From the IMG/VR virus record IMGVR_UViG_3300031994_000070: a DNA stretch of 20,000 nucleotides; one strand, given 5' to 3'. The notes under the pieces are model-generated. The model was given only the letters and a program-made list of their open reading frames with translations. It made no database searches and was not told the origin of the DNA. The position numbers and the translations under genes were made by a program. Positions 1,933 to 19,887 of this stretch are shown here, piece after piece; the stretch's first letter is position 1; each line of letters begins with the position of its first letter. Source of the DNA: an uncultured virus (IMG/VR IMGVR_UViG_3300031994_000070). Lineage: Duplodnaviria; Heunggongvirae; Uroviricota; Caudoviricetes.

Positions 1933-3051
1933 CTATATCTTGCGCAGATTCTTCTTATGAACTGCGGCGGTAACTGTTTTACCAACACCAATTACCACTC
2001 TATTTTTATTTACTTCAAATACGGTATATTGAGCATACCAAGCAATAAACTTTTTGCCTTCATAAGTAACTGCGTTTAATACCTTAACTTTATCGCCCGG
2101 TTTAAGGGTTTGCGCATCATCTGTTACCGATGGCTTTGGTTTCGCATATCTAATATCTTCTTCGTCCATCCAGCCAAGGCTACCAGTAGTATTGTAAGGG
2201 TGCTTTGCGCCAGGTATTGCACGGGTGATTTTAGTAGTTAATTCTTTAACTACTTTTCCAGCAGACTTGCTGGCATTTGAACTTACATATAATTCGCCTT
2301 TAATAATAACCTTATCTCCAACTTTAAACTTTAATTTGGGAGTTTCTTCTTTAGGTTCTGGCTTCGTTTCTTCTTTATCAAATCCATTATATTTGTTGTC
2401 TTTTATAAACTTGGGCATATCAACGTAGCAATAATCTTGGTCTACCGTTTTACCCGCAATTTTGTTTGACCTAATTACGTTCGTTTCACCGCCAAATTGC
2501 CATAAGTAGTTAACTGGTGAAGATGGTTTATTCTCCATCCAGGCAGCTACCCACTTGCCATATTTAGTAAGTTCAGATAAAGTCATTTTATTTCTAAACC
2601 AATTTAAATTTGCATAAATCACTGGATAATAATTTTTAGAAATTAAGTAATCACAGAATCCTTTTGCAGCGTCAGTTACCTTCTTCTTACTAGCCTTAGC
2701 TTGGTATACCGGGTCTTCTATATCAATAGCTATTGGATATTCAAACTGCTTGCCTTTTAAACAATTCTCATACATATATTTTGCTTCTGCTTGTCCAGCC
2801 TCATAGCTTGTTGCTCTACTGAACCAATAAGCGCCAACAGGCAGTTTTCTTTTAGTAGCTTCTTTATAGAATATTTCAAATTGATTATCTACTTTTTTAC
2901 TAACACCATCTTTGTCGCCGGTAAATCCTGCTCTTAATATTGCAAACTTAACTCCTTCTTTTATCGCTGTATCCCAATTTAAACCAGCCTGCCAAGTACT
3001 AACATCGATGCCAAAAACTGGTTTATCTATTTTATATTTTGAAATATTCAT
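1933..3051 (-). CDS. GH25 lysozyme/muramidase (endolysin-like) with C-terminal putative cell-wall-binding repeats
   Basis: GIDVSTWQ, FAILRAG, GAYWFS, DIED, WQF and VDQD motifs of GH25; KVGDKV / KPGDKV SH3-like C-terminal modules. Confidence 0.9.
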   Translation of the reverse strand: MNISKYKIDKPVFGIDVSTWQAGLNWDTAIKEGVKFAILRAGFTGDKDGVSKKVDNQFEIFYKEATKRKLPVGAYWFSRATSYEAGQAEAKYMYENCLKGKQFEYPIAIDIEDPVYQAKASKKKVTDAAKGFCDYLISKNYYPVIYANLNWFRNKMTLSELTKYGKWVAAWMENKPSSPVNYLWQFGGETNVIRSNKIAGKTVDQDYCYVDMPKFIKDNKYNGFDKEETKPEPKEETPKLKFKVGDKVIIKGELYVSSNASKSAGKVVKELTTKITRAIPGAKHPYNTTGSLGWMDEEDIRYAKPKPSVTDDAQTLKPGDKVKVLNAVTYEGKKFIAWYAQYTVFEVNKNRVVIGVGKTVTAAVHKKNLRKI

Positions 3052-3464: not shown

Positions 3465-5240
3465 ATGAGTTTACAAGTTTGGCTTCCTCTTACAAAAGAT
3501 TTAAGAAATCAAGGTTTAGCTACAATTGAACAATTGTCAGGGACGGCGGTTTTTAAAGATAGTGGTAAAATAGGAAATAAAAGTTTAAATTTACATAATT
3601 ATTTAACTTTTAATTGTCCTACCTTATCAGGAAAAAAGAATTTTTCATTTTGTTTTTGATATAAACCAGAGACTTCTACCTCTACAGTTAATTGAAATGA
3701 TGTAGTCGCATTTTTTGATAGTGGTGGAGGTCTGTTTAGGTTAGAAACAAGTTATGGATATAGTAATTATATTTTAAGTATGCATAATAATACCAGTTAT
3801 GCTATTTTTCCTAATAGCGGTGGTTCTTATGGGTCTAATTTAGTTATTTCTAGTGCACGAGATATTTGGTATCATGTTGCAGTTATTGTATCTGAAACTG
3901 AAGGAATCAATTGCTATATTAATAATGAACTTAAATTTACTATCGCTCATGCTGGAGGTTCAATTACAGGTAAATTTAATTTAGGAGAATATGCCAGCGG
4001 CGGCAATGAAGAGGGGAGTTTAAATGATTTCCGCATCTACGACCATTGTCTTTCTCCGATAGAAGTCAAAGAGCTTTCAAAGGGATTGGTGCTTCATTAT
4101 CCATTAAGTGATGGCAATATTGAATCAACCTATAATTATTTAGAAAATAAAAGTTTTTCAAATTATGGTAGCTATGGTTTTGGAAGTAAGGGTACTATTT
4201 CAATTACAACAGAAGTAGAACCACCAATAGCTGGAAATGAAGTGGCTTTAGTAACGAGTTCTGCAACAACAGCAGGTAATGGTGCGGTAGAAATTGCAAC
4301 TAGCATATATCCCGGCACAATTATGAACAAAGATGATACTTTCACAGTTACAGCATATGTTAAAGGAAAAGGTGCAACAATTGGTAAAAGGGCACATATT
4401 CATTTATACAATACCAATGGCACAAACACTCAATCTACTGGTAAAGATTATACTTTTACAAATGAATGGCAAAGAATTGAATACACATTAAAATGGAACT
4501 ATGATACTCCATCTAATAGTAGTTTAAATTGTTATGTAGTTGGATATATAGCTCCACAAGAGCAGTTTTATGTTAGTAGTATACAAGTTGAGAAAAAAGA
4601 CCACTCGACTCCATTCACTACAAATACAAGAACATCAACAATTATATATGATGCAAGTGGATATTGCAATAATGGTACAATAAATGGTAATTTAACTATT
4701 TCAACCGATACTCCTAAATATTCAATGTCCACTTATATGTCAAAAACTACGTTAATAACCCATCCACGTCCAGTGTTCGGAGGAACAGACCAAGAATGGA
4801 CTTGCGCAATGTGGGTTAAATTAGATAATACATCACAAGGCAGTCAAGCTATGAACAATTTTAATATATCTAATAATATTGTTCATGCTTCTAATAGTAC
4901 ACCTTTATTATATTTAAATGATGGCACAAATGATTATTATATATATGGAAGTCAAGCGGTTAGCGCTGGAGTTTGGACACATGTTACTTTTGTATTTAAA
5001 AATAGTGATGGAACAAGAAATGTCTATATTAATGGTGTATTAAAAAATAATTATGGGCCAAATAAAACATCTACCCCAAGAGGTATTCCAGATATAGTAA
5101 CTGTAGGCACAAATTTAGCTGGTTACATATCTGACTATCGGGTATATGCAACACCTTTATCAGCCGACGACATTAAATCACTCTATCAAAACGAAGCTCA
5201 ATTAGATGCATCAGGTAACGTCTTTGGCCCAATTAGATAA
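3465..5240 (+). CDS. LamG/concanavalin A-like domain protein (two LamG-like domains flanking a carbohydrate-binding-like domain), 591 aa with TGA=Trp
   Basis: AGGAGG RBS then ATG 3465; track ORFs 3399..3659 and 3780..5240 are in one frame, separated only by TGA 3657-3659 (FSFCF*YKP, where LamG has W) and TGA 3693-3695; WYHVAV, LNDFRIYD, WTHVTF and ISDYRVY LamG motifs. Confidence 0.85.
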
Positions 5241-5244
5241 AACT

Positions 5245-5280
5245 AAAACCCCTCGGTATAACCGAGGGGTTTATTTTTTT
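5245..5280. terminator. bidirectional intrinsic terminator between convergent genes
   Basis: 12-bp stem AAACCCCTCGGT/ACCGAGGGGTTT with A- and T-tracts on either side. Confidence 0.85.
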
Positions 5281-6508
5281 AGCTATGATGTTTCATTAAA
5301 TACTCTGGAGAAACGCATTTAAAAGACCTTACTCCGTCAAAAGACCTGAACACAATTCCTTCTTTCATTTTTCCATTGATGCGAGAAGTTTCGCTATTAA
5401 CATAATCACGTAACTCCTCAATAGTATCGGGTAATGTATAATTTGTATCTAGTAATGGTACTCCTGGTAATCCATAGATAGATAAGAAGGTATGCATTGC
5501 ATTTGGATTTAAACGATGATGAGTACCATCTTTATATCCAAAAATTACATTGAAAATTGCTAATTGATGGTTATTTAAACCATAATCATTATCTTGAATA
5601 CCTTTACCATAAGTTTCACCTTGAATAGTGATATACTCATATTTAGGTTCGGTGTCTAAAATATTAGTAAGCACTTGCTCAATATGATATTTGTCGCTCA
5701 TTTCTGTATATACGTTAGTATCATAGAAACCTTTTTTAGATGGTTTATCAAATGCGATATTACGAGAGCAGACTAAATATTCATATTTAGGGGCAAATGG
5801 ATTATGATTTCTTTTTAAAGTAAAAGTGGTAGAAGTGCCATCAATTTTTTCAGTTGCCATCCAAGGTGTTTTATCTTCTAATACCCAAAGCATATTTTCC
5901 ACACGCTCTTCATCGGTTTTTTTAACCCAAGCTGGCCAACCTCTTTTATCTTTTTTACGCCCAAAGAACACGAAGAGTAATTTTTTACCCCATTTACGTT
6001 TCATTAACCAATAGAATGGTTGATGTTTAAATAATTCTTTGTGGCGTTGTGCCATAGAATAATATTTATCAACACCTCTGCCTTTACGTTTGTTATCTTC
6101 AGCCACCGCATATGTAACTCCTAACTGTTTAGTTAAGAAACGAGATTCATCGTCTAAACGGTGCGCCACGCCATCAGTATCATAAATCGCTTCTGCGTCA
6201 GCAGTCCAACCAAAATTTTCAGCAGACATTAATAAACCTTGAGATAAACTTTTGCACATTTTTTGTGTTTTGATTTTATAATGTTTGCTAACTAAAAATT
6301 CCATATTGGTAAAAGGTTCTACCTCTGGTAATTTAGAGTCAATTTCAAAATAAATTGCTAAATCATTAGGTTTAAACTCACCTTTACCAACTACAACTGT
6401 CCAGCCACCGATATGCGCCAGCTCAACCCTATCATAGTTAGGAATTGGAGTTACATTATCAATTTTAATAATATATGCTAATTGTCTTACTTGTTTAGAA
6501 TCTAACAT
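5279..6508 (-). CDS. ATP-dependent RNA ligase, Rnl2/DRB0094-like, with N-terminal OB-type domain
   Basis: Motif I TEKIDGTS, IQGETYG, EGIVF and terminal FKCVS; N-terminal IPNYDRVELAHIGGWTVVV..IYFEIDS typical of the DRB0094 family. Confidence 0.9.
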   Translation of the reverse strand: MLDSKQVRQLAYIIKIDNVTPIPNYDRVELAHIGGWTVVVGKGEFKPNDLAIYFEIDSKLPEVEPFTNMEFLVSKHYKIKTQKMCKSLSQGLLMSAENFGWTADAEAIYDTDGVAHRLDDESRFLTKQLGVTYAVAEDNKRKGRGVDKYYSMAQRHKELFKHQPFYWLMKRKWGKKLLFVFFGRKKDKRGWPAWVKKTDEERVENMLWVLEDKTPWMATEKIDGTSTTFTLKRNHNPFAPKYEYLVCSRNIAFDKPSKKGFYDTNVYTEMSDKYHIEQVLTNILDTEPKYEYITIQGETYGKGIQDNDYGLNNHQLAIFNVIFGYKDGTHHRLNPNAMHTFLSIYGLPGVPLLDTNYTLPDTIEELRDYVNSETSRINGKMKEGIVFRSFDGVRSFKCVSPEYLMKHHS

Positions 6509-6577: not shown

Positions 6578-7402
6578 TTATAAAATACATTCTTCTCTTA
6601 ACATTTGTTTTCGTGATGGCTGTCTTAATTTAGTTAATGCCACAATTTCTAATTGTCTAACTCTTTCTTTCGTTAATCCGACTAATTGCCCAACTTCTTC
6701 TAAACTTTTTTGTACTCCGTCATCTAGCCCAAATCGTTTAATTAAAATATTCTTTTCTCTCTTGGGTAAAGTGTTTAAAATTCTCATTAACCCCTCATGA
6801 ACCGCTAAACTTTTTTCGCCTTCTTCTCCAGTCCATGCATTTGCATCTGGGATAATATCTTCCAATGAAGTATCACCATCTTCATCTATAGTTTGATTTA
6901 ATGAAGTAGGGGAGATATTTGCCGCCATAATTCGAGATATATATTCGGCATCTAATCCGGTAGCTTTGGCCAAATCCTCTAAGGTCGGGTCTACTTCTGA
7001 AGATTGAGATAATTGCGCACTTGCCGTTTTAATTGTTTGTAAATCTGCCACTACATTCGCTGGAAGTCTAATTAAACGGGATTGGTCAGTTAATATCTGT
7101 GTAAAATACTTTTTTATATAATGTCCCGCATAAGTCGCAAACCTCGCTCCCTGTGTATAATCATACTTACCAGCTGCTTCTATTAATCCTAAATTTCCTT
7201 GCTGAATTAAATCAATTAATTCAATTCCTTTATCATGATACGGTTTACTTAAAAATACTACTAATCTTAAATTCGATATAATTAATTCTTCTTTTGCTTT
7301 TTCGTCCCCTTGTAAAATACGTTTGCTTAACTCCATCTCTTGATTTGCATCAAGTAATGGGAACTGTTTAATTTCATCTAAATATTCAGCAATACTATTC
7401 AT
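6578..7402 (-). CDS. phage-encoded sigma70-family (RpoD/RpoS-like) sigma factor lacking region 1.1
   Basis: Region 1.2 YLDEI..PLL; region 2 SNLRLV / DLIQQGNLGL / RFATYA; region 4 RFGL...LEEVG...LTKERVRQLE..AL.KLR. Confidence 0.92.
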   Translation of the reverse strand: MNSIAEYLDEIKQFPLLDANQEMELSKRILQGDEKAKEELIISNLRLVVFLSKPYHDKGIELIDLIQQGNLGLIEAAGKYDYTQGARFATYAGHYIKKYFTQILTDQSRLIRLPANVVADLQTIKTASAQLSQSSEVDPTLEDLAKATGLDAEYISRIMAANISPTSLNQTIDEDGDTSLEDIIPDANAWTGEEGEKSLAVHEGLMRILNTLPKREKNILIKRFGLDDGVQKSLEEVGQLVGLTKERVRQLEIVALTKLRQPSRKQMLREECIL

Positions 7403-7421
7403 TCTTTCTTTATTCCTTCCT

Positions 7422-7736
7422 TTATGACTTTAAATCGCCATCCGTTTCCATAGAGGCTAATGTTATTTCCTCAATAAGTTTACAACATTTTTCTACTGAT
7501 TCAGCCATTAATACCACATGTCCAATAGCCTGAAACGAAATTATATTTGTTCTCTCTGTTGGTATAAGATTAAAACCAACATGGCCATCAATTCATCCTA
7601 ACGTAAAATCAAAAATACTTGTATAATCATTATACGTCAAAACTACCCGACCGTGGTCATTCCTTATATTTACTAAATAAGGTGAACACTCTTCGGGCAC
7701 TGATTTTGCAATCACATACATATCTAATTCACGCAT
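7422..7736 (-). CDS. hypothetical protein, 104 aa with one TGA=Trp
   Basis: ATG 7736 after AAGGA RBS and promoter; frame open to TAA 7422 except TGA at 7593-7595 (FTLG*IDGH); fills the gap up to the sigma gene RBS. Confidence 0.75.
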
Positions 7737-7769
7737 TTATTTTTTCCTTTTCATTATTATTCTATTATA

Positions 7770-7798
7770 ATTATAACACTTTATGAATAAATTGTCAA
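7770..7798 (-). promoter_or_regulatory. consensus sigmaA promoter upstream of the hypothetical+sigma operon
   Basis: TTGACA-17-TATAAT with TG extension. Confidence 0.85.
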
Positions 7799-7806
7799 CT
7801 ATTTTT

Positions 7807-8112
7807 TTAAATTTCTCCTAATAGTTGTAATTCACTAATTTTTTCTGAAAAATCTCTCTCTATCAGTTTTCTTGATTCAGAATAATCGCACTTATATCGT
7901 AACTCTTTAGTGCTATATTCAAGTTCTACTAAATATGTTTCTTGAGCGGGGATATATGCTACAGATAAAACCCCATCTGTCCATCCATCTGGCATTGGAG
8001 AATCTAATTTAATTGTATAATAAACTCCATCAGCTCTTTCTTTTAGAATAATTTCTGTAATACTATCATAATATTTAGTAGGTATAATTTTAATTGCTGT
8101 TTTTAATTTCAT
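7807..8112 (-). CDS. hypothetical protein
   Basis: 101-aa ORF with AAGGAG RBS. Confidence 0.7.
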   Translation of the reverse strand: MKLKTAIKIIPTKYYDSITEIILKERADGVYYTIKLDSPMPDGWTDGVLSVAYIPAQETYLVELEYSTKELRYKCDYSESRKLIERDFSEKISELQLLGEI

Positions 8113-8187
8113 CTTTTTCTGTTTCTCCTTCTGCTCAATTTTACTATTTTTTTTAATGAAAAAAAAATAATTTCTCGATGTGAGAAA

Positions 8188-8592
8188 TTATTTAGTTAAG
8201 ACCATAAATCCTAAATTATATATCCATATATCTTTATCATCAACTTTGAAATGGGTGAAATCTTGATGTTGTTCAACAATAGTAATAGTAGTGCCAGTAA
8301 AAAAATGTAATGGGGCGCCAGTAGTGGTAAAAATAGTTAAAATTTTATTACCGCCTACATATGCGTCATTAACTTCTTCTGACCATATTTCCTTAAAAGC
8401 TGATACGTCTATAGATTTTGAAGTTGAATCATCAAAAATAATAACGGGCACGTGGCTTAATGTTAATTTTTGACCAGCGCCAGAGGTTATAGAAATCCAC
8501 TCACCTATATCGTTATATTGAACATCAACTTGTGAATAAAATAATTTAATTGGACTTGTTTCTATTGTGTTTAATATCTTAATGTTATACAT
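8188..8592 (-). CDS. hypothetical protein
   Basis: Track ORF 8188..8622; start trimmed to ATG 8592 because the upstream part is a terminator-like hairpin; start uncertain. Confidence 0.6.
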   Translation of the reverse strand: MYNIKILNTIETSPIKLFYSQVDVQYNDIGEWISITSGAGQKLTLSHVPVIIFDDSTSKSIDVSAFKEIWSEEVNDAYVGGNKILTIFTTTGAPLHFFTGTTITIVEQHQDFTHFKVDDKDIWIYNLGFMVLTK

Positions 8593-8635
8593 AGCAAAAA
8601 AAAAGAGGGCGCAATGGCCCATGGTGAATAAGTAC

Positions 8636-8711
8636 TGGTGATTCGTACAGGATTTGAACCTATGTCTCCGGCCTGAGAAACCGACGTGCTGAGCCTCTAC
8701 ACAAACGAACC
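8636..8711 (-). tRNA. tRNA-Glu(CUC)
   Basis: Cloverleaf GGTTCGT/ACGAATC, loop TT-CTC-AG, GTTCAAATC, ACCA; own promoter TTGATT-17-TATAAT at 8734-8762. Confidence 0.88.
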
Positions 8712-8844
8712 TTATCTTTAACTTTCTATAATTATTATATCAAATTTTTTTATAAAAATCAAATATTTCGCGTACGCCGGCTGTCACGGGGGCCCAAGGA
8801 AGGTGGACCGCTTGAATTCCACAACTAACTATATTACTTATTTA

Positions 8845-9384
8845 TTAGGGCCATTCTCCAAGTGGCATTCCAAGCTGACCGCGTTCAACATCTGTGTTGA
8901 AGAATACACCTTGTACAGCAGGACCGGTAAGAATTTCTTCGGCAATATCCTGATAGAGTGTACTAATTACTCCATGGCAATCATTAAGGTTATCATTAAA
9001 GAACTGAACTACACAATTCTTAAAGACAACGTATACCATTGAGAACCAGGCATAACCATCATCAGCAGGTGCGGCGGCATAAGCAAATGCAGGATTCTTA
9101 TAGAAAGCCGTTTCAAACAGTTCTTTCTTTGTAGTGAAAGCGCGATTGCTGGGTTTACCATCTACACCAATCTTAAGAGTGACACCACCAAATGTGACTT
9201 CTTCTGGCAGAATCTGAAGAAGAGCGGCTACTTTATCGCCATTATTACATGCGAGAATAATGGACGGATTAGGTGCTTCCCAAACTACGTTACACGCAAT
9301 CTGTGGGTCACCGTCAAAAAGAGCCTCAACCTTATGAATGTAAGTAATCCAAGGAGGCGAAATTTTGAGTCTAACTTCTGACAT
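8845..9384 (-). CDS. hypothetical protein
   Basis: 179-aa ORF, AGGAG RBS, somewhat higher GC than neighbours. Confidence 0.8.
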   Translation of the reverse strand: MSEVRLKISPPWITYIHKVEALFDGDPQIACNVVWEAPNPSIILACNNGDKVAALLQILPEEVTFGGVTLKIGVDGKPSNRAFTTKKELFETAFYKNPAFAYAAAPADDGYAWFSMVYVVFKNCVVQFFNDNLNDCHGVISTLYQDIAEEILTGPAVQGVFFNTDVERGQLGMPLGEWP

Positions 9385-9427
9385 ACGTTAAATTCTCCTT
9401 TTTTTATTATGAACAATACGTTGCAAA

Positions 9428-9502
9428 TGGAGCTGGCGGAGGGAATCGAACCCCCAACCTGCTGATTACAAATCAGCTGCTCTACCGTTGAGCCACGCCA
9501 GC
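9428..9502 (-). tRNA. tRNA-Thr(UGU)
   Basis: GCTGA-TT-TGT-AA-TCAGC anticodon arm, GGTTCGATTCC, CCA. Confidence 0.95.
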
Positions 9503-9513
9503 ATAACGTGGAA

Positions 9514-9720
9514 TTAATTCCAATTCCACAGGCTATATATTGCTCCTGCTCCTCCAAGGACAAATCCTAATAAAAAGAGCATAAATTCTGTAAACCATAC
9601 TAATGTACAAAAAGTGCCATCTTTAAATTGCGAATTAAAAAGTGATTTAAACCCACAAAACGTACATAGTATGGTAAACAAAATTAACAAACTAAAATAT
9701 ACTTTTAATACTATATCCAT
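9514..9720 (-). CDS. small membrane protein (2 TM)
   Basis: Two hydrophobic segments in 68 aa; third of three coupled small hydrophobic ORFs. Confidence 0.65.
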   Translation of the reverse strand: MDIVLKVYFSLLILFTILCTFCGFKSLFNSQFKDGTFCTLVWFTEFMLFLLGFVLGGAGAIYSLWNWN

Positions 9721-9721
9721 T

Positions 9722-9808
9722 TTACTTCCGTGCTGATGCGGTCATCAATGCAACTAAAATAAAGCCTAATGACCCACCAATAATTAATCCTAATAAAAAG
9801 TTAATCAT
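9722..9808 (-). CDS. small single-TM protein (28 aa)
   Basis: MINFLLGLIIGGSLGFILVALMTASARK; abuts neighbouring ORFs. Confidence 0.6.
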   Translation of the reverse strand: MINFLLGLIIGGSLGFILVALMTASARK

Positions 9809-9920
9809 TCTTATCTTTTTTTAAATCATCAATCAACGCGATACACATCATTATGGCAAATACCGCAAGAACGGTTAATGTCATGCCTAATATCGCATAT
9901 ATTATTCTTAATATCATCAT
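9801..9920 (-). CDS. small single-TM protein (39 aa), probably leaderless
   Basis: MMILRIIYAILGMTLTVLAVFAIMMCIALIDDLKKDKND; ATG 6 nt after TATAAT of promoter 9927-9955 (TTGGCA-17-TATAAT). Confidence 0.6.
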   Translation of the reverse strand: MMILRIIYAILGMTLTVLAVFAIMMCIALIDDLKKDKND

Positions 9921-9959
9921 ATAAATATTATACTAATTATTTTTTATTTTGCCAAATTT

Positions 9960-10388
9960 TTATTCGTTTATATCTTCTTCAAAGATATAGTCGCAACCAT
10001 CAACTGATTTAATGTATTCTAACATATCAGCATATTCCGGTCTGTGGAACCAATCATTGAAGATATAGGTATAAGAAACTTTTTCAGCGCCAAGAGCCTT
10101 GCCGATTTTTCTGAACTGCTGGATTTTAAATCCACAGGTCTGCGGTTTTTCATCGGCACTGCCGTGGGTTTCCTGATACTTTTTCTCATAAATGATAAAT
10201 TCTTTAGTATTTTCGTCGAAGAATGCTTCGTCCGGTAAGAGCTTTTTAGAGATAATGGAGTCCCATTTGATGCCCTTCTGTTCTAAATATCTATACAGAT
10301 TATATTTCTGTAAATTAACAGCACCTTCGTGGTTAATTTTTACTCGTTCTTCGAATTTTAATCCAGTTGTTGTATCTCTGTAAAGCAT
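9960..10388 (-). CDS. PD-(D/E)XK nuclease-like protein
   Basis: G..FE...PDEA...YEKKYQ..GSADEK pattern; own promoter TTGCTT-17-TATAAT at 10423-10451. Confidence 0.65.
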   Translation of the reverse strand: MLYRDTTTGLKFEERVKINHEGAVNLQKYNLYRYLEQKGIKWDSIISKKLLPDEAFFDENTKEFIIYEKKYQETHGSADEKPQTCGFKIQQFRKIGKALGAEKVSYTYIFNDWFHRPEYADMLEYIKSVDGCDYIFEEDINE

Positions 10389-10450
10389 ACCATAAATCTC
10401 CTTTTATCTTTTTTCTATATAAATTATAACATAGTTTTTATAAAAAAGCA

Positions 10451-10481
10451 AAAAAAAATAAGCCCCCTAAAAGGGGGCTTA
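10451..10481 (-). terminator. intrinsic terminator ending the ncRNA operon
   Basis: TAAGCCCC...GGGGCTTA hairpin followed by U-tract on minus strand. Confidence 0.85.
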
Positions 10482-10532
10482 GCGGAATGTTAACGCGTTC
10501 CCATCTCTTTTGCGTTAAGCATCACATGGCGG

Positions 10533-10609
10533 TGGTCGGAGTAGGGGGATTTGAACCCACGACCTTCCGGTCCCAAGCCGGGCGCTCTACCAAACTGAGC
10601 TACACTCCG
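10533..10609 (-). tRNA. tRNA-Pro(UGG)
   Basis: CGGAGTG acceptor, CT-TGG-GA loop, GTTCAAATC, ACCA. Confidence 0.95.
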
Positions 10610-10695
10610 ATACGTACCCAACGGACTCGTCGTAACACCAAACCTCCGTCAGTTGTAGACTTACTACCATAAATTGGACTTCTCTTACGAGCGTG

Positions 10696-10751
10696 CAGAA
10701 TTTTTAGCATTACCCACCTCGCGCCACGTGGAGGCAAATTCTGTGCGAGGC
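10696..10751 (-). ncRNA. minimal HDV-like (theta-type) self-cleaving ribozyme
   Basis: P1 GCCTCGC/GCGAGGT (G1-U wobble), J1/2 A, P2 CAGAATTT/AAATTCTG, P3 GCC/GGC, L3 TCCACGT, P1.1 CC/GG, vestigial P4, J4/2 CTAA with catalytic C. Confidence 0.88.
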
Positions 10752-10830
10752 TGGAGATGTCGGGATTCGAACCCGAGTCCGCGACAGTTCACTTTGGATT
10801 TAAGCCACGTCGAACGCCCATCGCATCCCC
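10752..10830 (-). ncRNA. mini-tmRNA (tRNA-like domain only, no tag ORF)
   Basis: 5' GGGGATG...TTCGAC and 3' GGAC-TCGGG-TTCGAAT-CCCGA-CATCTCC-A; G3-U70 and A73 Ala identity; P2a CGTGGC/GTCGCG closed by an 18-nt loop; no encoded CCA. Confidence 0.75.
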
Positions 10831-10877
10831 GTATATCGTGACGTGGCGATTGACCACTTATCGCCACGGTTACTTAA

Positions 10878-11162
10878 TTAAATAAGAATGTCAAAAAACG
10901 GAAAATAGGGCTTTTTGACACTATCTGACCATGACATATGGAATGAGCCATAGTCTTTTGTAAAAGCATTAAGAAGCTCATAAGCATGTGCCTGAGCCTG
11001 TTCGACGGCTTTAAAGGCATCTTCTACCTCTTTGGCTCTTGCACTTCTCTGCTCTTTAAGTTTCTCTTTTTCTTTTCTGGCCTCAACAACCGCCTTTTCA
11101 GCTGCCTTGAGAGCCTCTTCAGTGTCATAAAGTTTTTTTGTTTCGTCGCTATAATACTTCAT
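10878..11162 (-). CDS. hypothetical coiled-coil protein
   Basis: 94-aa ORF, AAGGA RBS, Ala/Glu/Lys-rich helix. Confidence 0.8.
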   Translation of the reverse strand: MKYYSDETKKLYDTEEALKAAEKAVVEARKEKEKLKEQRSARAKEVEDAFKAVEQAQAHAYELLNAFTKDYGSFHMSWSDSVKKPYFPFFDILI

Positions 11163-11251
11163 AAATATCGTCCTTTCGTTATTTATTGTTAAGTTCCTGC
11201 ACTTAACTAAAGTTAGCTATATATAAACTACGTGGTCGATAGTTGATATAC

Positions 11252-11328
11252 TGGTGCGTCCAAGAGGATTCGAACCTCCACTCTTGGGTTTCGTAGACCC
11301 CTACTTTATCCAGTTAAGCTATAGACGC
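11252..11328 (-). tRNA. tRNA-Arg(ACG)
   Basis: GCGTCTA/TGGACGC acceptor, CT-ACG-AA loop, GGTTCGAATCC, ACCA. Confidence 0.92.
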
Positions 11329-11333
11329 ATAAA

Positions 11334-11943
11334 ATTGAGAGAACCATTGTATATTTAAAATTGAGCCTTCGCCCTACCTCAGTTACCTTCAGTTATGGTC
11401 TGTCAATGGGGAGATTAGCGCGTGTACGGAGTAGCTAATTCCGTCCAACTAACCCCAGGCCGCCCTCGCCCGAAATCCCATGAGAGATTGATTACTCCCG
11501 CCTTTCACCTACCGTTCGCATATTTACGTGTTCTTGTACCCTATATAAGAACGGAATCTGTCCAATCAACGTGCCGCGTTAAGCTACTTGGATGTGCGTG
11601 CGAGGTCTCATAGTAGGTCATTTCTCCTACGTCTCGGCACAAACGATTTGTTAGCATTTCCAAGGTTTGACTAGTTTGCTACGCTAACCCTAACTTGGAT
11701 TCTTCCCCACAGGGGCGTCTATTGCATCGTCGACTTCACGCACTACATTTAACTGCGATAACTGACAGCGCTGCCACTTCAGGTACGTCCTATTCAGGAC
11801 TCCTTTTAATAGGTCGCCCTATTAAAAACGACTTCTTTTCAAAGTATCCTTATCAATCCATCGTCTGCTCCGCAACACCTCAGCATAACTGGTTTAGTTA
11901 CTCTGCACTGAGTTAATATTAAATACACAATGCTTCTCTCAAT
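11334..11943 (-). ncRNA. large structured ncRNA (~610 nt), ROOL-like candidate
   Basis: 29-nt terminal inverted repeat (26/29 identity), many internal helices, GC-richer, no credible ORF, strong promoter upstream, tRNA 5 nt downstream; family name inferred from size and context only. Confidence 0.7.
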
Positions 11944-11969
11944 ATTTATTTGTCATTCTTTATATATAT

Positions 11970-11998
11970 ATTATAGCAAAAATTTTTAAAATAGTCAA
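11970..11998 (-). promoter_or_regulatory. strong sigmaA promoter of the ncRNA operon
   Basis: TTGACT-17-TATAAT with TG extension. Confidence 0.85.
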
Positions 11999-12001
11999 AT
12001 T

Positions 12002-12190
12002 TTATAACATTTTTGCGACTTCTTCGATACCGGGGGCCAGTAATTCATAAGACCGTACCGATTCATCGCGTAAAAGGCACGTTCCATGTGCTACGTCGGC
12101 AAATTTACAATCAGTACAATTTGTAAATTTGTGGCAATACATTTTTAATAGTAAGATAGTATTAAATATGTCAAACTGTTTGTCATTCAT
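12002..12190 (-). CDS. small Cys-rich hypothetical protein
   Basis: C..C..C...C pattern (CHKFTNCTDCKF..C); GGAG RBS favours ATG 12190. Confidence 0.65.
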   Translation of the reverse strand: MNDKQFDIFNTILLLKMYCHKFTNCTDCKFADVAHGTCLLRDESVRSYELLAPGIEEVAKML

Positions 12191-12371
12191 GTTTGCCATC
12201 TCCCTTCTTGGAAAATATAGGGGGTTTCCAGTCTACAGCCGCACCCCCACGAGCGGTCATGGTATATCGTAAACCATGATTGACGAGCGAATTCACGCTT
12301 GTTAGGTTTGAAGTTTTCCTTCTTCTTACATCTATCCGGTGGCGATTCTCTTTTGGCCGGTGATTTGTCAT
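12183..12371 (-). CDS. possible small basic protein
   Basis: 62-aa ORF with GAGG upstream that fills the gap between genes; ends at TGA, so its end is uncertain if TGA=Trp; region could alternatively be structured RNA. Confidence 0.4.
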   Translation of the reverse strand: MTNHRPKENRHRIDVRRRKTSNLTSVNSLVNHGLRYTMTARGGAAVDWKPPIFSKKGDGKHE

Positions 12372-12378
12372 CTCGCCT

Positions 12379-12549
12379 CTAAGCCTTTACAATATATCGA
12401 ATATATTTCTGTCCATTTTCGGTATACTCTTCAGCTTCGCAAATTTCTTGCAGATGTAAAGATTTCTTTATTTGAGTGAGATTAGCGGTTGGTTGTCCAT
12501 TCAAATAAAGAATAGGTTCATTGTCATCAAAAACTGTAATATACTTCAT
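12379..12549 (-). CDS. hypothetical protein (56 aa)
   Basis: GAGGA RBS; MKYITVFDDNEPILYLNGQPTANLTQIKKSLHLQEICEAEEYTENGQKYIRYIVKA; TAG stop. Confidence 0.65.
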   Translation of the reverse strand: MKYITVFDDNEPILYLNGQPTANLTQIKKSLHLQEICEAEEYTENGQKYIRYIVKA

Positions 12550-12560
12550 TTTTCCTCTGT

Positions 12561-13469
12561 TTATTTATTTAAAAATCTCTGGAACGCACTTGCAGTGTTT
12601 GGACCAAAATATCCGTCTGCAGTGCCAGCATTACATCCTTTTGCATTTAAGAACTTTTGTAATGCTATAACAGTTTGTTTTCCGCAAAGTCCATCAATCT
12701 CTCCTGGGTTGTAACCGTTCTTTTTCAGATACCTTTGAAGTCTATCTACTGTAGTAGAACCAGTATAACCGTCATTGTATCTTACAGTTGTCCAACGAGA
12801 TAAGTAAGGACGTACTGTTGAAGTTTGTCCGCCAATCCATCCATCAGGTGTAAGACCAAGGAAACCTTGGAGTCTTCTTGTTGAAAGTTCACCAAAATAT
12901 CCGTCTACAGTTAATTTAGATGGAGTTGTAGTAGTTGTTGTTGAAGTAGATGAGCCACCTGAAGATGAAGCACCTAATTGCTTATTAACTTCAGCAGCGA
13001 TATAAGGGAATTTAGAATACAGATAGTTGCCAGGGCATGTGGTTGCCATAAACATTCTATGGGCGGTTAAGTTGCCACTTGTAGTGCCGTTAAAAACTAA
13101 CTTTTTAATTCCATTTCTCTTGCAAATATCAACAACAAGTCTAATACAAGAAGCAAGTGCTTTATCACTTACGTGCCAGTTACCACCGATTTGGTCATTG
13201 GCAACCTCAATGGTTACTGAGCGTTGGTTGCTTGCAAAATTACCGTTTGTTCATGCAGCATATGCTTCACTAACATATTGGCCAATTCTGCCATCGCTAC
13301 CTACGCCATAGTGAGCAGAAGCTTCTCTTGAACGAAATACGCTGCCGCAAGTTTCTACACTAAGATTTCCAGCCATATGGTGAATGGTAATGTCTGTGAT
13401 TTTCTTGCCACCGCGATAGCTTCAATTGGGAGACCAAGCGGTATAGTTTACTAAAGTTGAATTGCTCAT
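12561..13469 (-). CDS. N-acetylmuramoyl-L-alanine amidase (Amidase_2) endolysin with PG-binding repeats, 302 aa with TGA=Trp
   Basis: GGAGG RBS, ATG 13469; ITIHHMAG, ASAHY, TIEVAN, HRMF..TTCPG Zn motifs; TGA at 13422-13424 and 13251-13253 (YAA*TNG, conserved AW position); S/T linker; DG.FG..T...LQ repeats. Confidence 0.92.
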
Positions 13470-13487
13470 TATTCTTCCTCCTTTAAA

Positions 13488-13679
13488 TTACATAGGAACA
13501 GCTCAACTTATTCCATCTTCAGAATCAGTTAATTCATAATCAATAATAGTGGAATCTCTGTCGAGTATTTCCTTTGCCTGTGTTTTAGTAATACCGGGAC
13601 TATAATAGTAGTAATCCCAGCTCTCATTTTTACGTTTAATCCATAAATAATGATACGTGTTTTCAGTTTTTTCTGCCAT
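13488..13679 (-). CDS. hypothetical protein (63 aa with TGA=Trp; 58 aa if TGA is stop)
   Basis: GAGG RBS; MAEKTENTYHYLWIKRKNESWDYYYYSPG...DGIS*AVPM; TGA 13503-13505, then TAA just before the amidase RBS; promoter TTGCAT-17-TATACT at 13768-13796. Confidence 0.65.
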
Positions 13680-13796
13680 GTTATAACCTCTACTTTTTTT
13701 AAGGGCACAACCAATTTATTGTTGTTATTTGCCCTATTCATTTTGCAATTCACTTTTCTCCAAAAATAGTATAACATTTTTTTTATAAAAATGCAA

Positions 13797-13826
13797 ACAA
13801 AAAAGACAAGTTAGCACTTGTCTTTT
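13797..13826 (-). terminator. intrinsic terminator after tRNA cluster
   Basis: AAAAGACAAGT/ACTTGTCTTTT hairpin with U-tract. Confidence 0.75.
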
Positions 13827-13830
13827 GGTA

Positions 13831-13976
13831 TGGCGCCTCGAGTAGGATTCGAACCTACAACCTATCGGTTATGGAGCCAGAGGTGAGTTACGTTCCTCAC
13901 ACCTTGGGAGCGACCCAATGCACTACTTTATACGACTCTGACACAGCCGATTGCTCTACCGTTGAGCTATCGAGGC
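13831..13976 (-). tRNA. tRNA-Asn(GUU) interrupted by a 71-nt tRNA-shaped insert
   Basis: 5' exon 13976-13943 (GCCTCGA...ATCGG-CT-GT) plus 3' exon 13871-13831 (T-AA-CCGAT...TCGAGGC-G-CCA) join into a perfect 75-nt tRNA-Asn with G73. Confidence 0.88.
13872..13942 (-). ncRNA. tRNA-like intervening element
   Basis: Acceptor GTCAGAG/CTCTGGC+T+CCA, D-like GTAT/GTGC, TTGGG/CCCAA arm, T-like GTGAG/CTCAC; loops non-canonical. Confidence 0.8.
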
Positions 13977-13977
13977 A

Positions 13978-14052
13978 TGGTTGCGGAGGTGGGATTCGAA
14001 CCCACGGCGACTAGGTTATGAGCCTAGGAGGCTACCGCTGCCCTACCCCGCG
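13978..14052 (-). tRNA. tRNA-fMet-like (CAU)
   Basis: CGCGGGG start with C1:A72 mismatch; CTAGG-CT-CAT-AA-CCTAG; ACCA. Confidence 0.88.
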
Positions 14053-14058
14053 ATATTG

Positions 14059-14134
14059 TGGCTGGGGTGGCTGGATTCGAACCAGCGTATATAAGAGTCA
14101 AAGTCTTATGGCTTCACCGCTTGCCGACACCCCA
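14059..14134 (-). tRNA. tRNA-Gln(UUG)
   Basis: TGGGGTG/CACCCCA, TAAGA-CT-TTG-AC-TCTTA, GCCA; promoter TTGATT-17-TATAAT at 14149-14177. Confidence 0.95.
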
Positions 14135-14178
14135 ATGTTTATATAAATATTATACCAAATATTTATATAAAAATCAAA

Positions 14179-14442
14179 TTATTCGCTCATATCAGCTAAA
14201 TACACCCACACAATAAGATATTGCGGATTTGTGCTTTGCCACGCATCAGGGCATTTAGCCATTGAATATTGGACTACTGGAGTAAATAATGAAAAAGTGT
14301 ATTTTTGATTTTCAAAATTTATCAATTCATTATCTTTGTAATGCGCATAACCCAATAGACCATCACCGTTACCATAAATAAAACGGTATTGAATATCTAT
14401 ATCTTTTAATTGTAACTGATTAATGATGTCTATTACTCGCAT
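14179..14442 (-). CDS. hypothetical protein (87 aa)
   Basis: AGGAG RBS before ATG 14442 (MRVIDII...); the longer track start lies inside tRNA-Ser. Confidence 0.7.
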   Translation of the reverse strand: MRVIDIINQLQLKDIDIQYRFIYGNGDGLLGYAHYKDNELINFENQKYTFSLFTPVVQYSMAKCPDAWQSTNPQYLIVWVYLADMSE

Positions 14443-14457
14443 TTTTCTCCTTTTTAG

Positions 14458-14545
14458 TGGCCGAGGCGGTAGGATTCGAACCCACAGGGCTTTCGCCACA
14501 ACTGATTTCAAGTCAGCGCCGTTATAACCGTTTCGGTACGCCTCG
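14458..14545 (-). tRNA. tRNA-Ser(UGA anticodon)
   Basis: GCTGA-CT-TGA-AA-TCAGT, long variable arm, G73, CCA. Confidence 0.93.
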
Positions 14546-14551
14546 ATATAC

Positions 14552-14627
14552 TGGAGTGGATAATGGGACTCGAACCCACGACCTTCGCCTTGGCAAGGCG
14601 ACGTTCTACCAACTGAACTACATCCAC
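14552..14627 (-). tRNA. tRNA-Gly(GCC)
   Basis: TCGCC-TT-GCC-AA-GGCGA, U73, CCA. Confidence 0.95.
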
Positions 14628-14632
14628 ATAAC

Positions 14633-14717
14633 TGGTCGAGGGGGAAGGATTCGAACCTTCGAAAGCTCAGCTAACGGATTTACAGTCCGCCCCCTTTGGC
14701 CGCTCGGGAACCCCTCG
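14633..14717 (-). tRNA. tRNA-Tyr(GUA)
   Basis: GCGGA-CT-GTA-AA-TCCGT, long variable arm, A73, CCA; C1:G72. Confidence 0.93.
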
Positions 14718-14720
14718 GTA

Positions 14721-14867
14721 TTATTCCACAAGTTCAGATAATACGCTTTTACTGTCATCATCTAACATTTCAAAATATGGGTTAACGCCATCTTCATCAG
14801 CACCCATCGCATATGCTAATGCAATAATTTCTGCTAAAATTTTAACACTATTAGGCTTATCCATCAT
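14721..14867 (-). CDS. small acidic hypothetical protein (48 aa)
   Basis: AGGAG RBS; MMDKPNSVKILAEIIALAYAMGADEDGVNPYFEMLDDDSKSVLSELVE; lies between tRNAs. Confidence 0.6.
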   Translation of the reverse strand: MMDKPNSVKILAEIIALAYAMGADEDGVNPYFEMLDDDSKSVLSELVE

Positions 14868-15548: not shown

Positions 15549-16409
15549 TTAATCGTCCAGTAAATTACTGAGATTAGCCACTTTTGACCTTTCTGTAGTT
15601 GGTAAGTTAACTACACTAACCATTCTGTTGCCCTTAAGCCTATCAATCATAAACGGCGTTCCATCTTCAAAGGTCTTGAATTTATTAACTCCATAATCAC
15701 TTTGCCTAAAATCACTTAAAAACCAAAGTTCAGACCCTTCACCGACACGGCCAATAATTAATTGGTATAAGTCCCTAGTTAAATTTTCGCTTTCATCACT
15801 AATAATAATGGAGTTATTAAAAGAACGGCCCCTAATAAACCCAAGAGGCACTGCTTCTAATTCATTAGAATTTAATAAGGTTTCTAACCCATCTAAACCG
15901 CCAACTACATCTGCTATTGGTAAAAGCCACGGTAATTGTTTATCATCAATTGTGCCGGGCAATGCGCCGATAGATTCAGTTCCCTTTACATTAATATTAT
16001 TCCTCAAATAAATTATTTTAGCAAAATGCCCACGCTCTATTAATTCTAATGCTTTATTTAATGTAAGGAAACTTTTACCAGAGCCATAAGTACCAGTAAA
16101 AATCTTTAATGGTGTAGTTCGGTCATCCAAAGCATCAAACATTAGCTTTTGTTCTGTATTACGAGGTTTAATTGTTTCAGTCCATTGGTTTTTGATAACG
16201 TGTCCGCCAATATGTACGAAATACCCGTCTTGTAATTTTAATAAATCCAGCACTTGACCTTGCTGGTCGCATAAAACAACATATTCATTCTCTAAAAAAT
16301 CACCTCTAATTGTGTTTTCTGAGTAGAATTCAGCAAGCTCTTCCTCGCTTAAACAAAGTCGCTGATACCCTGTATAGGTAGTACCATATTCATTATTCAT
16401 ATAACTCAC
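15549..16409 (-). CDS. phoH: PhoH-family ATPase
   Basis: PRNTEQ, GTYGSGKS, GALPG, FIRGRSF, DESENLT, GRVGEGS, D.RQSD and ERS motifs. Confidence 0.92.
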   Translation of the reverse strand: MSYMNNEYGTTYTGYQRLCLSEEELAEFYSENTIRGDFLENEYVVLCDQQGQVLDLLKLQDGYFVHIGGHVIKNQWTETIKPRNTEQKLMFDALDDRTTPLKIFTGTYGSGKSFLTLNKALELIERGHFAKIIYLRNNINVKGTESIGALPGTIDDKQLPWLLPIADVVGGLDGLETLLNSNELEAVPLGFIRGRSFNNSIIISDESENLTRDLYQLIIGRVGEGSELWFLSDFRQSDYGVNKFKTFEDGTPFMIDRLKGNRMVSVVNLPTTERSKVANLSNLLDD

Positions 16410-19083: not shown

Positions 19084-19887
19084 CTAAATCGAGTCGTTTT
19101 CTTCAATCGCTGATTGCTTTTCTAATTTTTCTGCAAATTCTTTTAAAATGGCTGGGTTAGCTATGTCCAGCAAACGTCGGCAAATGTGGCATGGCGCCCC
19201 TGACTGACATCGTTGTCCACAATTTATCCTTCGTTGTGTTAAGTCTGACCGTAACAACCTATTATTGCCCGTATAGTTAAAATTTTGTATAAGCAATCTT
19301 AAGTCTGTTGGCCATTCTTTATCTTCCATATATACCCTATATAATGCTTGTTCTTGAGTTAATGTAACATTATCAAATTCAATAGTATCAATATATTTAT
19401 CGTATTCATCTATATCTTCTGGTCTAATCCATGTTCCAACAATTCCATCGGCACGAATCATGCCATCGTCATATGCAATATTAGGTACTGCACGAATAGG
19501 AACATTATATTGTTTTATCTTTGGTAAGTCAAAAAATAATGGGGCGTCTAATTTTATATAGCAAACGCCAAGGTTTAATAATGATTGTAACTGATAATAT
19601 GTTTGAACTTTATACCCCCAAAAGAACGGAATATCTAATCGTTGCATTATTTCATAATCTTCTAAATGTGCGATACAAACAATTAATTTACCACGAGATA
19701 AAATATTTCAATTAATTAAATCTTGTTCATTAAGTTGTTCTGTCGGCGGTACTTCTAATATTACATGTGCATCAGGATAAGCATCAAATAAGTCTGGTAA
19801 TGAGTTTCTGTCTCTAAATTCTACTTTAATTTCATCGGCTTTTTTAAGATAAGCAGATGATTGACGAGAACTTAAGCATACTTTCAT
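19084..19887 (-). CDS. hypothetical protein, 267 aa with one TGA=Trp, C-terminal 4-Cys cluster
   Basis: Track ORFs 19708..19893 and 19084..19647 are in frame, joined across TGA 19708-19710 by 20 sense codons; GGAGG RBS spacing favours ATG 19887; promoter TTGCCT-17-TATAAT at 19912-19940. Confidence 0.8.

Follow-up and report, generated by a model that had tools for sequence, protein, structure and literature searches.

Which RNA is encoded by a 79-nt minus-strand locus in a 20,000-nt stretch of viral DNA (the window), and what might it do for the phage that carries it? A first-pass annotation, made from the letters alone, had described this locus as a tmRNA reduced to its tRNA-like domain (TLD). 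The interval proposed there, 10752–10830, proved to be exact and the gene is read on the minus strand from 10830 to 10752 (Table 1). Judged by covariance models and sequence comparison, the RNA is a genuine TLD-only mini-tmRNA, i.e., a representative of a known but little-studied class of phage RNAs.

The Rfam tmRNA model (RF00023) scored 48.1 bits (E = 1.9e-16) in a scan of the whole window, which is marginal at a gathering threshold of 47, and 43.7 bits, under this threshold, for positions 10752–10830 alone, where 308 model positions were deleted. These deleted positions comprise the entire mRNA-like and pseudoknot part, in place of which an 18-nt loop is found, and the resume codon, the tag reading frame, the stop codon and the pseudoknots of full-length tmRNAs are all absent. 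With an 18-nt loop standing in for 308 model positions, the locus was filed as a TLD-only form and not as a working tmRNA. In both scans, tmRNA was the top match of the tRNA clan (CL00001) and lower-scoring clan matches were dropped, five of them in the scan of positions 10752–10830 alone. ARAGORN detected 12 tRNAs in the window and no tRNA at this site, and the D arm and the anticodon arm with a 7-nt loop that characterize a canonical tRNA (RF00005) are missing. The suspicion that the locus might score better as a degenerate tRNA, which had been raised together with the tmRNA reading, is therefore not borne out. The features on which this reading was based, namely the two tmRNA end signatures, G3:U70, A73 and the 18-nt loop on helix P2a, could each be located in the model alignment. 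The acceptor stem (GGGGAUG/CAUCUCC) is paired in 7/7 positions including G3:U70, the D-loop analogue contains GG and UUCGAC and the T loop is of the UUCRAnU type. GAC and GGA correspond to the tandem G.A pairs of the model, and P2a (GUGGC/GUCGC) is closed by GGAC.

Table 1. Coordinates of the mini-tmRNA locus, the adjoining ribozyme and neighboring features in the window.
Feature	Position	Strand and direction	Details
TLD-only mini-tmRNA gene, 79 nt, CCA not encoded	10752–10830	minus, 10830 to 10752	Rfam tmRNA; family conservation and covariation
Acceptor 5' strand GGGGAUG	10824–10830	minus	RNA positions 1–7
D-loop analogue CGAUGGGCGUUC	10812–10823	minus	RNA positions 8–19
G.A pairs and P2a 5' strand, GAC-GUGGC	10804–10811	minus	RNA positions 20–27
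18-nt loop UUAAAUCCAAAGUGAACU capping P2a	10786–10803	minus	RNA positions 28–45
P2a 3' strand GUCGC-GGA	10778–10785	minus	RNA positions 46–53; C is position 54
T arm UCGGG/UUCGAAU/CCCGA	10760–10776	minus	RNA positions 55–71
Acceptor 3' strand CAUCUCC	10753–10759	minus	RNA positions 72–78
Discriminator A	10752	minus	RNA position 79 (tRNA position 73)
Theta (minimal HDV-like) ribozyme, 55 nt, putative self-cleaving	10697–10751	minus, 10751 to 10697	Layout fit; covariation
Ribozyme stems and J1/2			P1 GCCUCGC/GCGAGGU (G1.U), J1/2 AC, P2 AGAAUUU/AAAUUCU, P3 GCC/GGC
Ribozyme loops, P1.1 and J4/2			L3 UCCACGU, P1.1 CC/GG, L4 GUAAUG, J4/2 CUAA
Predicted cleavage site	between A10752 and G10751	minus	
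Predicted catalytic C	10707	minus	
ROOL RNA, full-length	11344–11936	minus	Rfam 286.6 bits (gathering 99.1)
tRNA-Arg	11252–11328	minus	
94-aa Lys/Glu-rich ORF	10878–11162	minus	
9-bp leader hairpin CGUGGCGAU / AUCGCCACG	10842–10868	minus	Read from sequence
tRNA-Pro(UGG), CCA encoded	10533–10609	minus	87 nt downstream of ribozyme end
Intrinsic-terminator-like hairpin	10459–10481	minus, 10481 to 10459	10 pairs and T-run
Metallophosphoesterase	310–891	minus	Pfam Metallophos_2 1.4e-09; PHROGs phosphoesterase 4.2e-45
Polynucleotide-kinase-like P-loop kinase	881–1354	minus	Pfam AAA_33 1.9e-18; PHROGs polynucleotide kinase 6.7e-21
DRB0094-related RNA ligase	5279–6508	minus	Pfam PHA02142 OB-fold and RNA_ligase; PHROGs RNA ligase 1.8e-62
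GH25 endolysin	1933–3051		
Amidase_2 endolysin	12561–13469		
Sigma-70-family factor	6578–7402		
PhoH	15549–16409		

A strict pattern consisting of GGGGNNG, TTCGAC, a gap of 20–50 nt, GGAC and the T loop retrieved at least 120 IMG/VR loci, and the matches listed contain 91 unique sequences. By this sequence pattern, the mini-tmRNA is a member of a large phage family. Positions that the pattern leaves free are strongly conserved among the unique sequences listed: the acceptor 3' strand is paired in 7/7 positions in 87 of 91, G3 faces U70 in 89 and the discriminator is A73 in 90. A full CCA, on the other hand, follows the gene in just 40/91 of them. Pairing in P2a was counted from the anchors GAC and GGAC in 92 sequences (the matches listed and the window), as the family model R1, derived from a MAFFT alignment, captured only 13 pairs and re-alignment shifted those sequences that start with GGGGG. 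The window scores 64.9 bits with R1, of which it is itself a seed member. P2a positions 1–6 are paired in 98, 99, 90, 96, 87, and 77% of these 92 sequences, as compared to 44, 52, 45, 45, 39, and 46% in a shuffled-partner control. All pair types are used in this helix across the same set, and the relatives provide compensatory sets such as GUGGC/GUCGC, ACGGC/GUCGU, UCGGC/GUCGA, and GGGCA/UGCUC. In most family members among the matches listed, an A-rich bulge is followed by a small inner hairpin (CCN-tetraloop-NGG), which is degenerate in the subfamily of the window and reduced to the conserved string CCAAAGUG. This degeneration counts against the competitor role proposed below.

A tRNA was found within 1.5 kb at 16 of 80 family loci among the matches listed, indicating that most copies stand alone, and ARAGORN called a tmRNA at 3 of these 80 loci. 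When the locus was compared by blastn with 50,697 phage records, no match was obtained, and a scan of genome contigs for the 5' motif returned a single match in an unrelated Streptomyces, which gave no clue to the host. An unannotated stretch of the cultured Streptomyces phage Shaeky (MT701595.1, 42932–43010) matches family locus L112 with 73% identity over 100% of 79 nt and probably represents, by this similarity, another mini-tmRNA.

How does the RNA obtain its 3' end? In the window, the gene is followed by GCC instead of CCA, and a predicted theta ribozyme adjoins the discriminator A at offset 0, two features that the first-pass annotation had missed. Theta ribozymes, as described by Kienbeck et al. 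(2024, PMC10879173), belong to the minimal HDV-like type and are associated with tRNAs in gut Caudoviricetes. The Rfam HDV models match below their thresholds (RF00094, 29.2 bits at a gathering value of 50; RF02682, 27.1 bits at 44); these models include a P4 stem of 30 and 15 positions, respectively, which is reduced to 1 nt here. The modelled cleavage site of these HDV-type matches lies exactly after the discriminator A. The published theta descriptor has the layout 7-2-7-3-T-CC-ACGT-3-7-GG-GTAAYG-CTAA-7 with the catalytic C as the first residue of J4/2 (PMC10879173, supplementary file 5), and the window fits it exactly (GCCTCGC-AC-AGAATTT-GCC-T-CC-ACGT-GGC-GCGAGGT-GG-GTAATG-CTAA-AAATTCT). 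The ribozyme cores CCTCCACGTGGC and GGGTAATGCTAA occur 1,593 and 3,008 times, respectively, in the same supplementary file. A combined pattern of TLD and ribozyme has a single match in the window and none in 200 shuffled sequences, which, together with the Rfam tmRNA score, speaks against a chance match.

The combination is not restricted to this phage. A first combined pattern, which was too strict in requiring a T stem with GG ahead of TTC, retrieved no locus from viral contigs; joined to the theta core, the TLD pattern yielded two loci in viral contigs in a relaxed form and seven in metagenome contigs. Five distinct ribozyme sequences including that of the window were thereby available, each located at offset 0 behind a mini-tmRNA. 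In their ungapped alignment, 95% of the cells of 20 pairs are paired, compared with 38–48% in slid-alignment controls, and compensatory changes on both sides are present in 14 of the 20 pairs; none of 500 shuffles reached these values. All five variants have the same L3, the same GG in P1.1 and the same catalytic C. This alignment supports a nested double pseudoknot of P1, P1.1, P2, and P3 with a short L4 as the predicted fold. A descriptor scan placed the cleavage site of all 13 TLD-adjacent matches at offset 0 from the TLD 3' end. Control descriptors in which the catalytic C was replaced by A, G, or T gave 14, 0, and 12 matches, respectively, numbers that are uninformative since an A-rich J4/2 satisfies the altered pattern. 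In another lineage with a mini-tmRNA and ribozyme, a second theta ribozyme was found at offset 0 after tRNA-Met(CAU), 683 nt upstream of the mini-tmRNA 3' end (L123:4324–4455; also in L127, L130, and L131).

Several comparisons bear on the origin of the ribozyme. Each of the 13 tRNA genes in the window includes CCA, and no HDV-like match was found at any of them; the mini-tmRNA is the sole CCA-less gene among the tRNA-type genes of the window and the sole one with a ribozyme. Four relatives from this subfamily (L121, L122, L124, and L125) terminate with ACCA and carry no ribozyme, and L125 and L126 have identical upstream DNA and an identical gene, the difference being an encoded CCA versus a ribozyme. 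The sister phage L129 is 98–99% identical to window positions 6886–14814 on both flanks and its mini-tmRNA is identical, while its ribozyme is a different theta ribozyme with rewritten P1 and P2. Here, the ribozyme is followed by a 212-aa ORF with GIY-YIG (9.3e-11) and NUMOD1 (2.1e-05) domains. Ribozyme and endonuclease together (L129:4064–4826) sit directly behind the mini-tmRNA, within an insert of about 715 bp that is not present in the window. The mini-tmRNA gene is also identical in the sister phage L135 and differs by one base in L133. Taken together, sequence comparison indicates that the ribozyme most likely arrived within a mobile ribozyme-plus-homing-endonuclease cassette which replaced the encoded CCA. 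The ribozyme would thereby keep the invaded mini-tmRNA gene functional.

The mini-tmRNA is part of a minus-strand RNA operon in the order ROOL, tRNA-Arg, 94-aa ORF, leader hairpin, mini-tmRNA, ribozyme, tRNA-Pro, and terminator-like hairpin, the last of which would end the operon after tRNA-Pro. ROOL ends 15 nt before tRNA-Arg and, given this spacing, RNase P cleavage at the tRNA could help to set the 3' side of ROOL; scans of the window found no theta ribozyme flanking ROOL. The leader hairpin, which is also present in L129, stops 11 nt upstream of G1; it is devoid of a T-run, and a terminator search did not report it. Counterparts of the Lys/Glu-rich ORF were found at L121:3057–3206, L127:3797–3865, and L149:11834–12037 (E values of 9e-6 to 8e-4). 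In three lineages (window, L121, and L127; E values of 2e-4 to 8e-4 over 23–50 residues), the distance between the ORF and the mini-tmRNA is no more than about 0.7 kb, and in the complete phage G001 it is about 10 kb; a role as partner of the mini-tmRNA is not claimed, as the similarity is weak and maybe just compositional.

The window further contains an RNA heal-and-seal set that consists of the metallophosphoesterase, the kinase-like protein and the RNA ligase. The genes of the metallophosphoesterase and the kinase overlap (NCBIfam bacter_Pnkp 5.9e-09, below cut-off), and the two proteins are candidates for healing the RNA end, a 2',3'-cyclic phosphate, that is expected after cleavage by the ribozyme. 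The ligase scores 101 bits with TIGR02306, below the cut-off of 151. A further tRNA gene (13834–13976, minus strand; Rfam 59.5 bits, CCA encoded), which was not found by ARAGORN, carries an insertion of about 71 nt in its anticodon loop. The insertion is below the size of a group I intron, and its removal after U33 would result in the loop CUCAUAA with the anticodon CAU.

The first-pass annotation had also connected the mini-tmRNA with ribosome stalling at in-frame UGA codons. Such codons are indeed present at residues 16 and 73 of the Amidase_2 endolysin, at residues 87 and 99 of a Laminin_G_3 structural protein and in other genes (13251–13253, 13422–13424, 3657–3659, 3693–3695, 19708–19710, 8740–8742, and 7593–7595). 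The 17 confident ORFs end with TAA (14) or TAG (3) and never with TGA. In-frame TGA together with the lack of TGA stops suggests that TGA is probably read as sense, most simply as Trp as in table 4; no UCA suppressor tRNA was found within the window. However, G001 (144,875 bp), the nearest complete phage whose mini-tmRNA belongs to the subfamily of the window, has an open-frame cover of 91–99% when six stretches of 20 kb (120 kb of 144.9 kb) are read with table 11, and hence uses the standard code. The mini-tmRNA is therefore not tied to recoding, and its link to in-frame UGA is weak: the codons themselves stand, the association does not extend to this relative. Searches of G001 revealed no SmpB, no PolyA_pol-type CCA enzyme and no full tmRNA, which was counted as dependence on the host.

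From the two folds, their exact abutment, the conservation throughout the family and the missing CCA, all of which can be read directly from the data, and from established knowledge of tmRNA and HDV-type ribozymes, a sequence of processing and charging steps can be proposed. The mini-tmRNA would be co-transcribed with its neighbors tRNA-Arg, the small ORF and tRNA-Pro, and RNase P would remove the leader by a cut at G1. The ribozyme would then cleave itself off exactly after the discriminator A73, leaving a 2',3'-cyclic phosphate that may be healed by the phage phosphoesterase and kinase or by a host enzyme. Subsequently, the host CCA-adding enzyme would add CCA and AlaRS would charge the RNA via G3:U70 and A73. 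In complex with SmpB and EF-Tu of the host, the charged mini-tmRNA could enter stalled ribosomes with an empty A site and take over the nascent chain; it would also tie up SmpB. As the RNA has no reading frame, it would compete with host tmRNA and block the addition of the degradation tag. The role as a charged, tag-less competitor of host tmRNA is likely. The complete proposal, i.e., a tag-less mini-tmRNA whose 3' end is joined to a theta ribozyme from a mobile cassette and which acts as such a competitor, is regarded as reasonably probable.

Among the alternatives, a pure sponge survives best. According to this explanation, the RNA would bind SmpB (or AlaRS) off the ribosome and shut down trans-translation without being charged or entering ribosomes. 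In E. coli, tmRNA is strongly inhibited by an RNA resembling the TLD, chargeable or not (Mao et al., 2009, as cited in PMC4131195 and PMC11915505), and SmpB titration was suggested as a possible cause (PMC4131195, citing Mao et al., 2009). The function suggested in the first-pass annotation, SmpB sequestration or addition of Ala without a tag, agrees with these accounts, and the inhibition itself also supports the competitor role. As quoted in these sources, the result keeps the sponge explanation alive and implies that charging may not matter for the effect, and the lack of smpB in G001 likewise speaks for a sponge. A sponge, however, needs neither G3:U70, A73 and a fully paired acceptor stem, which are retained across a diverse family at the frequencies given above for the matches listed, nor an exact CCA-acceptor end, which is made here by a predicted ribozyme. 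Because the alanine identity elements are conserved and the ribozyme would create precisely this end, the charged competitor is favored and the sponge appears unlikely.

Still less probable is a proposal that gives the cassette a regulatory consequence. A GIY-YIG homing cassette directed at mini-tmRNA 3' ends would have the theta ribozyme as its repair kit at the RNA level, and the 2',3'-cyclic phosphate produced by this ribozyme would make CCA addition to and alanylation of the decoy dependent on the phage kinase and phosphoesterase. If this were true, the blockade of host trans-translation would start only after expression of the RNA-repair module of the phage.

It is very improbable that the fold is a processing signal only (a t-element), which would guide RNase P and 3' enzymes on a ROOL/tRNA/ORF transcript and have no role in translation. 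The dense array of ROOL, tRNA-Arg, ORF, mini-tmRNA, ribozyme, and tRNA-Pro would suit such a signal, but it requires no alanine identity pair, no tmRNA-specific UUCGAC and GGAC motifs and no P2a, and most family loci listed have no tRNA nearby. Finally, it is hardly credible that the locus has no function, be it as a degenerate tRNA, as the remnant of a decaying tmRNA or as part of an attP site: ARAGORN makes no call at the site and a 3-bp hairpin with a 7-nt loop (UGG-CUUAAAU-CCA, an alternative put forward in the first-pass annotation) can be drawn in the window sequence alone, but this hairpin is not conserved in the nearest relatives while P2a is retained and covaries, the acceptor stem has both of its strands in paired form, Pfam and PHROGs searches gave no integrase nearby, and the gene is preserved in L129, L133, and L135, yet the adjoining ribozyme differs in L129.

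The charged competitor can be compared with several known systems. The TLD-only precedents named in the first-pass annotation are real: Mycobacterium phage DS6A is listed as “TLD only” (Hudson, Lau and Williams, 2014, PMC4131195), and tmRNAs without a CDS are described for jakobid and oomycete mitochondria and for Mallomonadaceae plastids (PMC11915505). As in DS6A, the window phage encodes a TLD-only RNA that is presumed to act on host SmpB and trans-translation. It belongs, however, to another lineage and habitat (it is found in RNA libraries labelled sheep gut) and, compared with DS6A by description, its gene has no encoded CCA, obtains its 3' end from a predicted theta ribozyme and is accompanied by a homing cassette at the same site in a sister phage. 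The organellar forms, as presented in PMC11915505, share a TLD without a tag frame that is thought still to work with SmpB, but they are mostly permuted two-piece genes and receive SmpB from the same cell, whereas the virus would use that of its host. Group I introns in tmRNA genes (the “intron form” in the account of PMC11915505) resemble the cassette in that a selfish element, sometimes with a homing endonuclease, removes itself at the RNA level and leaves a working gene; in contrast to these spliced T-loop introns, the element of the window is a 3'-terminal self-cleaving ribozyme, by prediction, that replaces CCA.

The resemblance to the published theta ribozymes extends from the segment layout and core to the position of the cleavage site, which abuts a CCA-less, tRNA-shaped gene; theta ribozymes have this site no more than ±1 nt away from the gene's 3' end. 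The window phage also shows probable stop-codon recoding and a DRB0094-type RNA ligase, a family stated in PMC10879173 to be 140-fold enriched in theta-bearing phages. Unlike in the published cases, the upstream RNA is a tmRNA TLD and not a decoding tRNA. The main text of PMC10879173 contains no mention of “tmRNA,” homing endonucleases or a cyclic phosphate, and its nine searchable supplementary files (possibly incomplete, with one further file outside this count) contain no instance of “tmRNA,” of these ribozyme variants or of this TLD.

A literature search found no paper on a phage family of TLD-only or mini-tmRNAs. The RNA type is rare but known, and no description of its pairing with a 3' theta ribozyme was found. 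The 2025 tmRNA database holds, by its own description, 79 phage tmRNAs and nine “Standard, no CDS” entries among 97,179 sequences (PMC11915505). Tag-less mini-tmRNAs have barely been studied, with one printed phage example and these nine CDS-less standard forms in the database, yet they are common in phage metagenomes. The CCA-acceptor end predicted to be made by the ribozyme and the family-wide alanine identity pair argue that the mini-tmRNA must be charged and is more than an SmpB sponge, and theta ribozymes and their homing cassettes would not be limited to decoding tRNAs. The two conclusions are relevant to the way in which phages deal with ribosome rescue and protein tagging in the host.

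Near-identical contigs of the region were found in four RNA runs from four studies labelled as sheep-gut or gut metatranscriptomes. One of these assembled contigs (X1, 486 nt) covers positions 10808–11293 with one differing letter. As they are assembled, have no end at 10751/10752 and leave 10670–10777 without cover in X1, X2, and X4, they carry no inference on cleavage, nor on transcription as opposed to carried-over DNA. Two contigs from two studies (X2 and X4) both stop at position 10873, a coincidence that gives a weak hint of an RNA end; this position follows the stop codon of the 94-aa ORF by 5 nt and immediately precedes the leader hairpin.
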